Below are positions 46,601 to 52,600 of a DNA stretch of 64,000 nt, piece after piece. This DNA is from Escherichia coli. GTDB lineage: Bacteria; Pseudomonadota; Gammaproteobacteria; Enterobacterales; Enterobacteriaceae. A program made the position numbers. The stretch is taken from the NCBI RefSeq assembly GCF_024298765.1, contig NZ_CP101210.1; one strand, given 5' to 3'. Every line of letters begins with the position of its first letter. Position 1 is the stretch's first letter.

Positions 46601-49600
46601 TAAAACTCCGGCGAGGTGTCGAGGTTGTGGTTATAGTAATCCAGCCCGGCATTCGCCAGGCGCTGCGCTTGAGATTCACTCAACGTGCCCAGCGTCATAC
46701 ACGCCTCCAGACCCATCGCTTTTACCCCCTGCACCATTTGTTCCAGGTACGGCATATCGCGTTCGTGGGGATTCTTCCACGCCGCGCCCATACAGAAACG
46801 CGTCGATCCCGCCGCTTTCGCTTTGCGCGCCGACTCCAGCACCTGTTCAACTTCCATCAACCGCTCGGCTTCCAGCCCGGTTTTGTAGCGCGAGCTTTGC
46901 GGGCAATATTTGCAATCTTCCGGACAAGCTCCGGTCTTAATCGACAGCAAAGTGCTGACCTGCACCTGACGAGGATCGAAATGCTGACGATGCACCTGCT
47001 GCGCTTCAAACAGCAGATCCAGCAACGGTTTTTCAAATAATTCTGTGACTTGCGACAATGTCCAGCGTGGGCGGTGAGCCATGGGGCTTCTCCAAAACGT
47101 GTTTTTTGTTGTTAATTCGGTGTAGACTCGTAAACCTAAATCTTTTCAATTTGGTTTACAAGTCGATTATGACAACGGACGATCTTGCCTTTGACCAACG
47201 CCATATCTGGCACCCATACACATCCATGACCTCCCCGCTGCCGGTTTATCCGGTGGCAAGCGCCGAAGGTTGCGAGCTAATTTTGTCTGACGGCAGGCGC
47301 CTGGTTGACGGTATGTCGTCCTGGTGGGCGGCGATCCACGGTTACAATCACCCGCAGCTTAATGCGGCGATGAAGTCGCAAATTGATGCTATGTCGCATG
47401 TGATGTTTGGCGGTATCACCCATGCGCCCGCCATTGAGCTGTGCCGCAAATTGGTGGCAATGACGCCGCAACCGCTGGAGTGCGTTTTTCTCGCGGACTC
47501 CGGCTCCGTAGCGGTAGAAGTGGCGATGAAAATGGCGTTGCAGTACTGGCAGGCCAAAGGCGAAGCGCGCCAGCGTTTTCTAACCTTCCGCAATGGTTAT
47601 CATGGCGATACCTTTGGCGCGATGTCGGTGTGCGATCCGGACAACTCAATGCACAGCCTGTGGAAAGGCTATCTGCCAGAAAACCTGTTTGCTCCCGCCC
47701 CGCAAAGCCGCATGGATGGCGAATGGGATGAGCGCAATATGGTGGGCTTTGCCCGCCTGATGGCAGCGCATCGTCATGAAATCGCGGCGGTGATCATTGA
47801 ACCGATTGTCCAGGGCGCAGGCGGGATGCGCATGTACCATCCGGAATGGTTAAAACGAATCCGCAAAATGTGCGATCGCGAAGGTATCTTGCTGATTGCC
47901 GACGAGATCGCCACCGGATTTGGTCGTACCGGCAAACTGTTTGCCTGTGAACATGCAGAAATCGCGCCGGATATTTTGTGTCTCGGTAAAGCCTTAACCG
48001 GCGGCACAATGACCCTTTCCGCCACGCTCACCACGCGCGAGGTTGCGGAAACCATCAGTAACGGCGAAGCCGGCTGCTTTATGCATGGGCCAACTTTTAT
48101 GGGCAATCCGCTGGCCTGCGCAGCAGCAAACGCCAGCCTGGCGATTCTTGAATCTGGCGACTGGCAGCATCAGGTGGCGGCTATTGAAGCGCAGCTACGC
48201 GAGCAACTTGCCCCCGCCTGTGACGCCGAAATGGTTGCCGATGTGCGCGTACTGGGGGCAATCGGCGTGGTCGAAACCACTCGTCCGGTGAATATGGCAG
48301 CGCTGCAAAAATTCTTTGTCGAACAGGGGGTATGGATCCGGCCTTTTGGCAAACTGATTTACCTGATGCCGCCCTATATTATTCTCCCGCAACAGTTGCA
48401 GCGTCTGACCGCAGCGGTTAACCGTGCGGTGCAGGATGAAACATTTTTTTGCCAATAACGGGAAGTCAGCGTGAGGGTTTCTGGCTACACTTTCTGCAAA
48501 CAAGAAAGGAGGGTTCATGAAACTCATCAGTAACGATCTGCGCGATGGCGATAAGCTGCCGCATCGTCATGTCTTTAACGGCATGGGTTACGATGGCGAT
48601 AATATTTCACCGCATCTGGCGTGGGATGATGTTCCTGTGGGAACGAAAAGTTTTGTTGTCACCTGCTATGACCCGGATGCGCCAACCGGCTCCGGCTGGT
48701 GGCACTGGGTAGTTGTTAATTTACCCGCTGATACCCGCGTATTACCGCAAGGGTTTGGCTCTGGTCTGGTAGCAATGCCAGACGGCGTTTTGCAGACGCG
48801 TACCGACTTTGGTAAAACCGGGTACGATGGTGCAGCGCCGCCGAAAGGCGAAACCCATCGCTACATTTTTACCGTTCACGCGCTGGATGTAGAACGTATT
48901 GATGTCGATGAAGGTGCCAGCGGCGCGATGGTCGGGTTTAACGTTCATTTCCACTCTCTGGCAAGCGCCTCGATTACTGCGATGTTTAGTTAATCACTCT
49001 GCCAGATGGCGCAATGCCATCTGGTATCACTTAAAGGTATTAAAAACAACTTTTTGTCTTTTTACCTTCCCGTTTCGCTAAAGTTAGTATAAAAAAGTTG
49101 AATGTGAAACGGTAAAAACAATTAATATCAACGGCTTATAATTGATTCAGTCTAAAAAATAGACTGCATAATGCTACAAAACACAACATATCCAGTCACT
49201 ATGAATCAACCACTTAGATGGTATTAGTGACCTGTAACAGAGCATTAGCGCAAGGTGATTTTTTTGTCTTCTTGCGCTAATTTTTTGTCAACACACTGGG
49301 TTAGCTGAATTTACAACCACGCTCAGTATCTCGATAAGCGCAGAGAAATGATGCAGTGGTGGGCGGATTGGCTTGATGAAAAAGTGGAGTAATCCGGACC
49401 GTACTTCTTTATCCAGGCATAAAGGCTGTGGGTGGTGATATCGAGACGTGTTGCAACGCTGGCAACAGAATAACCGCGATCAATAACCTGTTTGACTGCT
49501 TCAGTTTTAAACTCTTCGGGATAACGCTTACCGCTCATGGGCACCTCTCTTTAAGCCATCTTAAATGACTCTGAGGTGTCTGTTAAACCCGTGGCGATTC

Positions 49601-52600
49601 AAAACTGCGTGTTACGTTCGCCCTGGACTGTTGCGATCGTGAAGCCATAGACTGGGCCGCAAGCACGGGAGGTTACGATAAAGCGACAGTGCAGGATGTC
49701 ATGTTAGGAGCGATAGAAAAACGCTTTGGCGATAAAGTACCGGAACAGTCCATCCAGTGGCTGACAGATAACGGTTCAGCGTATAGAGCGCATGAAACAC
49801 GGCAGTTCGCCAGAGAGTTGAATCTGGAGCCCTGCACAACGGCAATCAGCAGTCCTCAGAGTAATGGAATGGCAGAAAGGTTCGTGAAAACGATGAAGGA
49901 AGACTACATCGCGTTCATGCCGAAACCGAATGTAAGAACGGCATTGCATAATCTTGCAGTGGCGATCGAACATTACAATGAAAACCATCCGCACAGTGCG
50001 CTGGGTTATCGCTCTCCGCGAGAATATCGACGTCAGCGGGTAACGTTAACTTAAGATACACCCCCTGTCTGGAAATAAGGGGGCAAGAACAATGATCAGA
50101 TTCCCTGGTGAGTAAGAATTTTACTTTCTGAACTCCTCTGAGAGTATTGACTTGGAGAAACACCAAAATAACGTCTAAATACATAAGTAAAGTATGAGAC
50201 ACTGGCATAACCACAGACCTTAGCTACTTTACTAATAGGATAACAACGAGTGCTGAGTAAATATTCAGCCATTTGCATCCTCTCATCAAGTATGATCTTA
50301 CTGAATGATACCCCCTCTTCTTTCAATTTCATCTTTAGTAAACTTTCGCTGAGATATAATCTTGATGATATATCCTTAAGACGCCATGGTGCAGATAAAT
50401 CCGTATGAATAATCGTTTTAACTTTAGCCCCTGTGCTTTTCAAACATCCAAACAGAAATACTCCAAATTGTTTTTCAGAAGAAAATGCAGAGAGACATGT
50501 AAAAGCAATAGACTCATCAAAAATTTCTATGTATTCAGCACAGTGATTAGCCCAACTAATTAATCCTTTAATTAAACTGAAGTCAGCAAAGTTTATTTTT
50601 AAATAAGATGGATATTCCCTACAATCAGAAATATCCCTTAAGTTATTAGCTTTCAAATAGCGACTAATAAACTCAGCGCCAAAATCCGCCACTATCACTC
50701 TTTCAGGATATGTCAGGAAAAAATCTCTAGAGCTAGAGTCGACAAGTACAGATGAACCTCTCTCCAGAAACACACTCTCTTTTCCGAAATAAACATCAAA
50801 GGACTCCAAAATCAATATAACTGAACATGTAGTTGCCATATCATCCACCCAATTTAACTGAAACCTGGATGAAGTATATGCATATAAAGTTCACTTTGCC
50901 AAACTTCAGTATAAAAAACCACATAAAAAATAGGGTGTGATAAAAAATACCGTAACAATAAAGCAAAGGATTATAAAATCCGTTACAGTTACAAATGATA
51001 CTCAAGAAACAATTCCTTAGGAAAAACTTATTTACAGCCAATAAGGGTAATGACTCGAACTTATTGATAGTGTTTTATGTTCAGATAATGCCCGATGACT
51101 TTGTCATGCAGCTCCACCGATTTTGAGAACGACAGCGACTTCCGTCCCAGCCGTGCCAGGTGCTGCCTCAGATTCAGGTTATGCCGCTCAATTCGCTGCG
51201 TATATCGCTTGCTGATTACGTGCAGCTTTCCCTTCAGGCGGGATTCATACAGCGGCCAGCCATCCGTCATCCATATCACCACGTCAAAGGGTGACAGCAG
51301 GCTCATAAGACGCCCCAGCGTCGCCATAGTGCGTTCACCGAATACGTGCGCAACAACCGTCTTCCGGAGCCTGTCATACGCGTAAAACAGCCAGCGCTGG
51401 CGCGATTTAGCCCCGACATAGCCCCACTGTTCGTCCATTTCCGCGCAGACGATGACGTCACTGCCCGGCTGTATGCGCGAGGTTACCGACTGCGGCCTGA
51501 GTTTTTTAAGTGACGTAAAATCGTGTTGAGGCCAACGCCCATAATGCGGGCAGTTGCCCGGCATCCAACGCCATTCATGGCCATATCAATGATTTTCTGG
51601 TGCGTACCGGGTTGAGAAGCGGTGTAAGTGAACTGCAGTTGCCATGTTTTACGGCAGTGAGAGCAGAGATAGCGCTGATGTCCGGCGGTGCTTTTGCCGT
51701 TACGCACCACCCCGTCAGTAGCTGAACAGGAGGGACAGCTGATAGAAACAGAAGCCACTGGAGCACCTCAAAAACACCATCATACACTAAATCAGTAAGT
51801 TGGCAGCATCACCAGCCTTCTTGAGGCTACCACCTGTTTTCAGGTGTCATTCAGACGTGATTTGCCCCAGATTGGGAAAGCACGCTTTTTTCTCAGCTAT
51901 CGTCCTCTTATTTTGCCGTTACATTTCTTTTTGCACTCTAATGATTAATTTACAATAATAATATCGGTAATTATTGAGTAATAATAAATTGATTATTGCA
52001 AATGTAATTTAATTCCATCTTCGCGTTATATTCCAATCTTTAATCTCCGCATGGAACAAGTTGCATGCGTGACTATATTAAGACAACTTATAACCACCAA
52101 AACATTTGCTTTGCAAGCAAAAACAGTGACCATTGACTCTAAGAAAATTCCGATCTATTGTTAGGGTCATCAAAGTTACTTAACAGTATTCCGAAATGAA
52201 AATACAAAGCAAGCTAATTGTCTTATTAAACATTATTATTGCATTTATATTATTTGAGCTTTTAGCTCAAAAATTTGGTTTGAGTACATTATTTTAAAGC
52301 AAGATAAACAATATCGGGCACTCTAGTTTTTATAATTAACAATTAAACGTCCATGAAATGTTATTTACTTTTCTTCGCTATTGTCATATCTTAATATAGT
52401 GGCTTACGCCACTCTACTTTCATCACATTTTGTACGTTTATGTACTCGCCATGAAGCTCTTTCATGGCGATTTTTTATTCTTAATCCAAGAACATACTCC
52501 CTACCTATAGCAAAATCACTTTTTTAACAAAAGAATAACGTATTTAGGTAATCATTACGAATTTACCCTATAGGTGCTACTGGCCATTCAATATCCGGTG

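Follow-up and report, generated by a model that had tools for sequence, protein, structure and literature searches.

Evidence for a native, patE-carrying accessory segment at the right end of a lambda-like Escherichia coli prophage

Between the right attachment site and the tail fibre assembly gene tfa of a lambda-like prophage in Escherichia coli lies a segment in which an AraC-family regulator gene sits among remains of insertion sequences (ISs), and which raises the question of whether the regulator arrived as foreign cargo in this strain or belongs to the phage itself. The original prediction, made on the window (the whole 64,000-nucleotide stretch that was analysed, from contig NZ_CP101210.1), proposed an IS-bounded mosaic that had replaced phage DNA; the elements that it listed were all confirmed in the sequence, at or close to where it had placed them (Table 1). 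Our analysis indicates that the region is very probably native to an mEp332/ev099-type lambda-like prophage inserted at attB-lambda beside bio, forming its right-end accessory segment, with patE as the one functional cargo gene.

Table 1. Features between the attachment site and tfa, in window coordinates
Feature	Position	Strand	Description
Lambda-type attR	49081..49296	.	86% identity to lambda 27741-27528
intS-like (P4-type) integrase 3' fragment	49310..49393	+	84 bp, ends ...RREMMQWWADWLDEKVE (stop); RefSeq pseudo-CDS "missing N-terminus"
IS3-family orfA 5' fragment	49393..49617	-	Codons 1 to ~50 and left terminal region; truncated at 49393
IS2-like (IS3-family) orfB 3' fragment	49618..50091	+	With right terminal repeat
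patE	50096..50839	-	247 aa, YdeO/GadW-like AraC-family regulator, WP_000246058.1
Retained patE 5' region	50840..51045	-	99% identical to EDL933 and mEp332 upstream, until IS1
IS1 (IS1A-type), intact, 768 bp	51046..51813	-	insA/insB' whole, same direction as patE
Remnant of serU-junction phage-side arm	51814..51898	.	Equals mEp332 L005:2501-2585
AT-rich tfa-distal phage DNA	51899..52562	.	99.5% identical in mEp332, 98.8% in ev099
tfa (tail fibre assembly)	52563..53144	-	phrog_105, E 3e-98; RefSeq; last structural prophage gene

The genes bioF, bioB, bioA and ybhB lie immediately to the left of the prophage, with the end of ybhB at 48993. The lambda counterpart of the attR stretch spans the annotated att core (27724-27738) and Int sites, and alignment to lambda places the core, TTAGTATAAAAAAG, at 49084-49098 with 14 of its 15 bases identical; the stretch also holds the P arm and a sib/tI-like hairpin (inverted repeat, 49237-49288). 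The core, the P arm, the adjoining ybhB/bioA and the adjacent tail end of the prophage together identify a lambda-type attR at the bio side of attB. At the other end, window 52582-53293, covering tfa, aligns to lambda 22535-21824 (the orf-194 region) with 94% identity, while the lambda alignment gave no match to ea47, ea31 or ea59 within 49297-52581, bearing out the proposal that the region occupies the position of the lambda b region without sharing its sequence.

The phages mEp332 (PV340541), PhiR70_1 (PV340577) and ev099 (LR597635, Radostvirus) agree with the window in order and sequence from the att arm to the tail genes (96-99% identity). They match window 49096-51045 and 51814-53200 at 98-99% and share one order of parts, i.e. 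att arm, truncated intS, truncated IS3-family orfA, truncated IS2-like orfB, patE, AT-rich DNA and tfa; over the prophage tail region (51814-64000), window and mEp332 are collinear with 96.4% identity. The three phages differ from the window in lacking IS1, in keeping 550 bp that contain a fossil serU junction, and in their PatE, which has R170 as well as E131 and E137. Among 5426 complete E. coli genomes, patE is present in about 650, the phage-type junction in 176, an uninterrupted patE upstream region in 101, and the version with IS1 in 81. Replacement by IS-bounded cargo is thus not supported, since both left-hand IS pieces and patE also occur in these viable phages and in the 176 genomes. 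Judged from these phage and genome comparisons, the region is ancestral phage DNA with no strain-specific replacement; a segment ancestral in related prophages and with an annotated function, as found here, is what the original prediction had itself named as its refutation.

Both left-hand IS fragments are dead and come from different members of the IS3 family. The coding part of the orfA fragment occupies 49393-49544 and the element ends at about 49597-49617; it is recognised by the NCBIfam transpos_IS3 model (E 4e-8), is annotated by RefSeq as "transposase, missing C-terminus", and is a 97.7% match to an IS3-family remnant beside yagB in the K-12 prophage CP4-6. The orfB fragment covers positions 172-289 of the 301 in the NCBIfam IS2 TnpB model (E 4e-54), is ~71% identical in DNA to IS2 and ~80% to an IS3-family element of a Klebsiella plasmid, and is linked to patE in EDL933, in strain H6 and in the phages. 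To their left, the intS-like fragment, overlooked earlier, matches annotated intS genes at their 3' end (94-95%) and is present in mEp332 and ev099. On the far side of patE, the AT-rich block (51814-52562; 749 bp, 28-36% GC) had been regarded as foreign, but its identity to mEp332 and ev099 (Table 1) marks it as native phage DNA. Within the AT-rich DNA lie a conserved 33-codon hydrophobic open reading frame (ORF; 52196-52297, plus strand) and a plus-strand terminator-like hairpin with a T run (52446-52470), and about 1000 genomes have Qin-like prophages at ydfJ whose end is ~95% identical to 51985-52562.

The end of IS1 lies 206 bp from the patE ATG and exactly 197 bp from an upstream GTG start, so that the 197 bp proposed for this side is exact when counted from the GTG; on the other side, the IS2-like fragment ends at 50091, 4 bp from the stop codon and not ~6 bp as first given. 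On the upstream side of patE, 550 bp (mEp332 L005:1951-2500) have given way to IS1. No target-site duplication of 8-9 bp was found at IS1, where the flanks GCCAATAAG and AGCCTTCTT differ, a feature that had previously been overlooked. An intact 768-bp element, no duplication and a one-sided loss relative to the related phages together characterise an IS1 insertion with an adjacent deletion, which in strain IAL7252 is accompanied by a further deletion of 118 bp. IS1 is a later and lineage-restricted event with respect to the patE locus: in the window lineage it inserted at a distance of 206 bp from the ATG, on the upstream side, and took out the 550 bp. Its restriction to few genomes, its missing duplication and its adjacent deletion all argue against IS1 as a bracket of the regulator.

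The regulator ORF extends over 50096-50848 from the GTG, or 50096-50839 from the ATG used by RefSeq, which is preceded by a Shine-Dalgarno-like GGTGGA; its GC content is 0.32-0.36. The protein is identical at 246 of 247 residues to the product of the sole AraC-family gene of the cryptic prophage CP-933H of E. coli O157:H7 EDL933, which adjoins thrW-proA, and the DNA is 99.2% identical over 1428 bp comprising the IS2-like fragment, patE and 206 bp upstream. Because a review and two other papers assign PatE, with effects on acid resistance and the LEE, to Z0321/O-island 8 (OI-8) (PMC10877973; PMC11879457; PMC10057817), and because CP-933H has a single AraC-family gene, sequence identity leads us to conclude that the window gene is PatE of EDL933 CP-933H, one amino acid apart. 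In both genomes the gene is prophage-borne, lies beyond tail-fibre genes and has the same IS2-like flank and 206 bp upstream. However, the EDL933 site is a remnant prophage at thrW, as opposed to an mEp332-type phage at attB-lambda here, and the upstream cut by IS1 with its 550-bp loss and the substitution R170M belong to the window allele. PatE was reportedly cloned by Bender et al. in 2012, who are named as the source for PatE of EDL933 CP-933H; the primary abstract is said to put patE "between Z0321 and Z0322", a small labelling ambiguity in which the same gene is meant.

Pfam HTH_18 (residues 158-235, E 2e-14) and HTH_AraC (201-232) matches reveal a double helix-turn-helix in PatE, and residues 138-238 align with the DNA-binding domain of GadX (3mkl; E 8e-24). 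PatE is 35% identical to YdeO, 33% to GadW and 28% to AppY. Assignment as YdeO proper was considered and rejected: the NCBIfam YdeO model (NF007407) aligns over positions 1-233 of 253 to PatE residues 4-238 with 146.6 bits, compared with a curated equivalog cut-off of 348 bits, and identity to K-12 YdeO is only the 35% given above. PatE has the full-length architecture and double helix-turn-helix of the chromosomal GAD acid-resistance regulators YdeO, GadW and GadX, and a target regulon in common with them (PMC10877973); in contrast to these core-genome proteins, PatE is horizontally acquired, low in GC and carried on phages.

Published descriptions have PatE activating gadE, gadBC and hdeAB and repressing LEE genes (PMC10877973; PMC11879457). 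The EDL933 protein binds the hdeA promoter between -132 and -45, an interval at which PsrB is also reported (PMC10877973), and Z0321, listed as a "putative regulator (prophage CP-933H)", is 6-fold RpoS-dependent in EDL933 (PMC2907692). The proposal that the regulator is a phage moron acting on host genes is thus borne out by its identity to PatE and by this literature (PMC10877973; PMC11879457). By the same token the regulator is already characterised and the locus real but ordinary; it is not the stretch least explained by standard annotation, as had been suggested, since RefSeq annotates every piece and the function of patE is published. Following the PatE literature, a lysogen would produce PatE from the gene's own promoter, chiefly in stationary phase and in an RpoS-dependent manner; PatE would bind AT-rich sites at the hdeA and gadE promoters and raise glutamate-dependent acid resistance, to the benefit of the host and hence of the prophage. 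Since the window host need not carry the LEE, the published regulon would apply to it in its acid-resistance arm only. The same strategy, an AraC-family prophage moron that activates gadE/hdeA, is seen in PsrA/PsrB (Z1789, Z2104) and in AppY of DLP12, the last at the same post-tfa position but with low identity to PatE. A group 53-56% identical to PatE, made up of P0011-P0013 and lambda-like phages such as 1H12 and ev203, may correspond to PsrA/PsrB.

How do other readings of the region fare? The IS-derived sequence as close as 4 bp to the stop codon and, upstream, 197-206 bp from the start, and the IS2-like fragment that accompanies patE in every context seen, could suggest that the regulator travels as a passenger inside a composite, IS-flanked unit and that this unit took the place of the b region here. 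However, the flanking elements come from different families, the left-hand ones are truncated and without transposase, neither the phages nor most patE loci have IS1, which lacks a target duplication, and in other genomes the module is bounded upstream by a serU fragment and not by the end of an IS. Because the left-hand IS pieces are dead and shared with phages and IS1 is later, the regulator is not the bracketed cargo of a composite element, and such a passenger origin is refuted in practice, with next to no likelihood left. A composite transposon as such was rejected: two copies of one IS are not present (truncated IS2-like orfB and IS3-family orfA on the left versus IS1 on the right), no target-site duplication was found at the outer ends, and the unit in other genomes ends at the serU fragment with IS1 absent or elsewhere. 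It is also highly improbable that PatE controls phage genes, e.g. tail-fibre expression or lysogeny maintenance, and not host acid resistance. Consistent with such a role, patE adjoins tail-fibre genes in every context and its full length matches phrog_1450, a phage protein family of unknown function; yet the published targets (gadE, gadBC, hdeAB, LEE) are host genes, patE is transcribed away from tfa with AT-rich DNA and a terminator-like hairpin in between, its closest chromosomal relatives YdeO, GadW and GadX regulate acid resistance, and AppY, from the equivalent position in DLP12, regulates host genes.

We consider it rather unlikely that patE is impaired or silent here, a recent pseudogene in waiting in a region useless to the host, with its upstream control region severed by IS1 and its first recognition helix damaged by R170M. 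The substitution (codon 50330-50332) falls in the first helix-turn-helix. Each of the six K-12 relatives compared (YdeO, GadW, GadX, AppY, EnvY and YbcM) has K or R at this position, as do four of the five PatE-like homologues, and the aligned residue of the GadX DNA-binding domain and of Rns/CsvR is K; with R170M, DNA binding may be weaker or altered, and PatE activity could drop. Regulatory sites could have been lost with the 550-bp deletion, which takes all sequence beyond -206; more has been deleted in IAL7252, and the entire neighbourhood is made of dead IS and integrase fragments. Against decay, the ORF is full length, free of frameshifts and stops, in 25 of 25 listed records with the window arrangement (poultry, pig, human and wastewater isolates), a 61-mer with M170 has exact matches in 100 records, and Ile occupies position 170 in the PatE-like cluster P0013 (623 members), indicating that a non-basic residue is tolerated there in nature. 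The best promoter-like site of the region in a consensus scan (TTGGCA-18-TATACT, 50902-50873, 10 of 12 matches) and the Shine-Dalgarno-like sequence are both kept; because this core promoter-like site and the ribosome-binding site survive the IS1 event, patE is probably still expressed in the window lineage.

With the region read as a native accessory segment, the origin of patE can be approached through the 550 bp kept by the intact phages, which consist of ~100 bp of patE-upstream DNA, 338 bp of chromosome (60 nt of the serU tRNA-Ser, then 278 bp from downstream of it) and a serU-type phage arm of 112 bp. Strain AVS0171 has a prophage integrated at serU whose end matches mEp332 L005:2389-2585, and the 85-bp piece at 51814-51898 is the sole matching part in many genomes. 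This anatomy suggests that a serU-integrated lambdoid ancestor may have taken up adjacent DNA including patE, by imprecise excision in the style of lambda gal/bio or by recombination at the serU junction, and that patE would then have spread among lambdoid prophages via tail-end recombination. As in lambda gal/bio transducing phages, the junction between tfa and patE in the intact relatives runs from phage arm through tRNA 3' fragment to the 278-bp flank, the order expected from capture of DNA beyond attR. In contrast, the fossil lies at serU, whereas integration now takes place at the lambda att site, the DNA past the 278 bp differs from the normal yodB/zinT neighbourhood, and the window itself has lost most of the junction by deletion; it is from the junction fossil only that we infer capture by excision.

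Two further readings, which we put forward tentatively and hold to be doubtful, bear on the wider meaning of the locus: that the derived patE, with R170M and the upstream clip by IS1, is a rewired acid-resistance switch, and that the serU junction records host-gene capture in the manner of lambda gal, followed by spread. The derived lineage comprises about 80-100 of the 5426 complete E. coli genomes, many from poultry. If the former is true, R170M and the lost control region beyond -206 could change the targets or timing of PatE and would not be a neutral variant. If the latter is true, the serU junction would be a natural phage capture of a host-side regulator that has since spread to a tenth of E. 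coli.

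Chromosomal DNA with bioF, bioB, bioA and ybhB, ending at 48993, fills the left part of the window; a Moco riboswitch (39370–39514, minus strand, 103 bits) and a naRNA4/REP-type element (19391–19461, plus strand, 73 bits) in this part are expected features. Alignment of window 49081–49296 with lambda 27741–27528 (86% identity), and the collinearity of the window over 51814–64000 with mEp332 (96.4% identity), a K-12 lambdoid phage from earlier work, identify the right end of a lambda-like prophage at attB-lambda, such that the region analyzed here is the DNA from tfa to attR. Comparison with lambda revealed no match to the b-region genes ea47, ea31 and ea59 between tfa and attR. 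Every part of the region is annotated in RefSeq, and all the elements named in the original prediction (the orfA and orfB fragments, the latter with its repeat, the AraC gene, the intact IS1 and the AT-rich block) are present. Of the two distances it gave, the 197 bp from the GTG start of the regulator to the IS1 end is correct (206 bp when counted from the RefSeq ATG start, ahead of which lies a Shine-Dalgarno-like GGTGGA), whereas 4 bp, not about 6, separate the stop codon from the IS2-like end.

Features of the prophage right end and the region between attR and tfa
Feature	Coordinates	Strand	Remark
Lambda-type att core, 15 bp	49084–49098		14/15 bases as in lambda
P arm with Int sites and sib/tI hairpin	within 49081–49296		alignment to lambda
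intS-like integrase 3' fragment (intS'), 84 bp	49310–49393		overlooked in the original prediction
IS3-family orfA 5' fragment (orfA')	49393–49544, end to about 49600	-	
IS2-like orfB 3' fragment (orfB') with terminal repeat	49618–50091		
AraC-family gene (patE), low GC	50096–50839 (ATG start) / 50848 (GTG start)	-	
Intact IS1, 768 bp	51046–51813		
AT-rich block, 749 bp, 28–36% GC			right of IS1
tfa	52563–53144	-	right of the region
Side tail fibre gene, 1135 aa, then lom and J		-	right of tfa

The regulator is PatE, and its identification is unambiguous. The gene with its flanks (50060–51050) is found in 668 of 5426 complete E. coli genomes (~12%) at 95–100% identity. The EDL933 copy lies at the tail-fibre end of a lambdoid remnant adjoining thrW-proA, i.e. 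the cryptic O157:H7 prophage CP-933H, where it is the only AraC-family gene; the homology covers window 49618–51045 (99.2%), and the two proteins differ by one residue, R170M. Pfam recognizes the AraC double helix-turn-helix, and the alignment to the NCBIfam YdeO model runs end to end but reaches 146.6 bits, below the 348-bit cut-off. With identities of 35% to YdeO, 33% to GadW and 28% to AppY, PatE is kin to YdeO and GadW, but is not YdeO itself. Z0321 was described as a “putative regulator (prophage CP-933H)” of O-island 8 with 6-fold RpoS dependence (PMC2907692), and is equated with PatE in a review, which summarizes experiments showing activation of gadB, gadC, gadE and hdeAB, places the site of action on the hdeA promoter at −132 to −45, and reports lower expression of several LEE genes through PatE (PMC10877973). 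Two further papers give the same account (PMC10057817; PMC11879457). In the K-12 prophage DLP12, appY, encoding an AraC-type GAD activator, occupies the same slot directly past tfaD/tfaX at the prophage end (16535–19431 of locus L014), and envY lies just outside the prophage; the post-tfa position looks like a recurring slot for AraC-type regulator morons.

The original prediction regarded the region as a replacement of phage accessory DNA by IS-bracketed cargo, to be abandoned if the same segment proved ancestral in many related prophages with annotated functions. Annotation combined with local alignments shows the order of the window (att arm, intS', orfA', orfB', patE, then tfa) in the intact phages mEp332, PhiR70_1 and ev099, which match window 49096–51045 and 51814–53200 at 98–99% identity, and the AT-rich block at 98.8–99.5%; none of the three contains the IS1. 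The phage-type junction (sib, intS', orfA', orfB') is present in 176 genomes, an uninterrupted patE upstream region in 101, and the full window arrangement including IS1 in 81. The IS remnants orfA' and orfB' are old scars found in functional phages, and the mEp332-type phage lineage has patE as a stable moron. The view of patE as the passenger of an IS-flanked unit, although the named IS elements do surround it, is thereby effectively refuted. A composite transposon was also considered and rejected, the flanking elements being truncated IS3-family fragments on the left and an IS1 on the right; a repeat search found neither IS1 nor the mosaic as a whole to be flanked by a duplication.

The IS1 stands in place of 550 bp of mEp332 (1951–2500 of the mEp332 locus, L005). 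Its flanks, GCCAATAAG and AGCCTTCTT, differ, and hence there is no target-site duplication, a point overlooked in the original prediction. A simple insertion was rejected since the right flank is not a continuation of the left; the sequences bear the pattern of an insertion with a subsequent deletion next to IS1. In strain IAL7252 this structure recurs, with a further 118 bp lost. IS1 and patE are transcribed in the same direction, and between them the best sigma-70-like site of the region (TTGGCA-18-TATACT, 50902–50873, minus strand) and the ribosome-binding site are unchanged, from which we infer that patE is probably still expressed. Part of this promoter region (50895–50918) is 75% identical over 24 nt to the attR core segment at 49073–49096 (..CAGTATAAAAAA vs ..TAGTATAAAAAA), probably a chance match in AT-rich DNA. 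In strain H6, patE adjoins paoD/yagP' (8037–12500 of locus L003), with an IS1 493 bp upstream, then corA, and a second IS1 beyond, which suggests an IS1-mediated rearrangement at a point different from that of the window. The IS1 terminal repeat beside patE in the window (51046–51065) is GGTAATGACTCGAAC, and that of the H6 copy, with one C-to-G substitution within the inverted repeat, is GGTAATGACTCCAAC.

Part of the DNA lost from the window can be traced in mEp332, where L005:2051–2388 matches the serU locus in 5422 of 5426 E. coli genomes at ~97% identity. By comparison with K-12, this stretch consists of the 3'-terminal 60 nt of tRNA-Ser(CGA), starting at the anticodon loop, and 278 bp of downstream intergenic DNA. 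The adjacent 197 bp (L005:2389–2585) match the end of a serU-sited prophage in strain AVS0171; the intact phages therefore hold the complete fossil attR of a serU-integrating phage, located between tfa and patE, with patE on the former bacterial side. The K-12 homology ends at 2388 and that to CP-933H at the serU fragment (L005:2391); CP-933H keeps the junction as far as the tRNA piece, upstream of patE (about 9085–9424 of the EDL933 locus, L002). Only 85 bp of the fossil phage arm (51814–51898) remain in the window, the rest being deleted, and 51985–52562, the remainder of the AT-rich block, is tfa-distal DNA that ~1000 genomes also carry at the end of Qin-like prophages. ARAGORN found no tRNA gene in the mEp332 locus, the 60-nt fragment being shown by alignment; Rfam hit it only indirectly, through a plastid motif antisense to trnS and through the tmRNA T-arm. 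The simplest reading, drawn purely from this anatomy, is capture of patE at serU: a serU-integrated lambdoid ancestor would have taken up adjoining DNA including patE, and tail-end recombination would then have carried the module among lambdoid prophages. Lambda takes up gal or bio DNA in a comparable way.

The AT-rich block contains a hydrophobic 33-codon ORF (52196–52297, plus strand; MKIQSKLIVLLNIIIAFILFELLAQKFGLSTLF), preceded by a promoter-like TTGACT-17-TATTGT (52133–52161) and followed by a strong plus-strand terminator-like hairpin (52446–52470). mEp332, ev099 and one Qin-like prophage end encode the same peptide, the DNA showing one synonymous change; the peptide has no family match in PHROGs, and exact look-up found it in just two database records, both unnamed. 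The ORF may encode a small membrane protein, or simply have arisen by chance in AT-rich sequence. An Rfam scan of 48900–52700 (E ≤ 1) found nothing within the region, the sole match being IS009, full length, at 52603–52801 (minus strand; 229 bits vs a gathering score of 117), wholly within the 3' half of the tfa CDS on the same strand. The side tail fibre ORF (53144–56551, minus strand) contains, especially at 55100–56300, ~1 kb of Ala/Ser/Thr-rich low-complexity repeats, whose composition (GC 0.60–0.63, strong AT skew) gives rise to long spurious reading frames, both in the remaining frames and on the complementary strand; at 96% identity over this DNA, mEp332 has a shorter annotated gene.

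The structural account, i.e. PatE on an mEp332-type prophage in an ancestral accessory region, with a later IS1 insertion and deletion, is highly probable. The functional account is more likely right than wrong for the window allele, and derives from literature on the EDL933 allele: a lysogen would make PatE in stationary phase, and PatE would raise gadE and hdeAB expression and hence acid survival. The R170M substitution bears on this account. Within the first helix-turn-helix, residue 170 belongs to the motif SESLLK(R/K)KLK; it aligns in a PDB search with K of the GadX DNA-binding domain, Rns and CsvR, and in a MAFFT alignment is K or R in YdeO, GadW, GadX, AppY, EnvY and YbcM; among PatE-like homologues it is K/R in 4/5, with Ile in one cluster. 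The position would correspond to a base-contacting arginine of MarA. Of 656 records matching the 61-mer around codon 170, 100 are exact, so that M170 is the less common allele and approximately follows the IS1 lineage. As judged from sequence, R170M may be neutral, weakening or specificity-changing. Functional decay of patE, to which this substitution and the loss of upstream DNA might point, is unlikely, the promoter-like site and ribosome-binding site being retained; regulation of the phage by this AraC-type protein is very improbable, the reported targets being those of acid resistance and LEE.

The patE gene has already been published together with its function and its occurrence in a prophage. 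Three minor details have probably not been described: its carriage by viable att-lambda phages, the fossil serU junction, and the sub-lineage with IS1 and R170M. These points are modest and leave current understanding unchanged. PatE-type regulators are one prophage route to higher acid tolerance, and thus infectious potential, of E. coli. One sub-lineage combines an IS1-clipped promoter region with a recognition-helix substitution, and is directly comparable with the reference allele. patE is not limited to the cryptic O157 prophage of its first description, but is also carried by plaque-forming lambda-like phages with the lambda att site, and is therefore readily transmissible.
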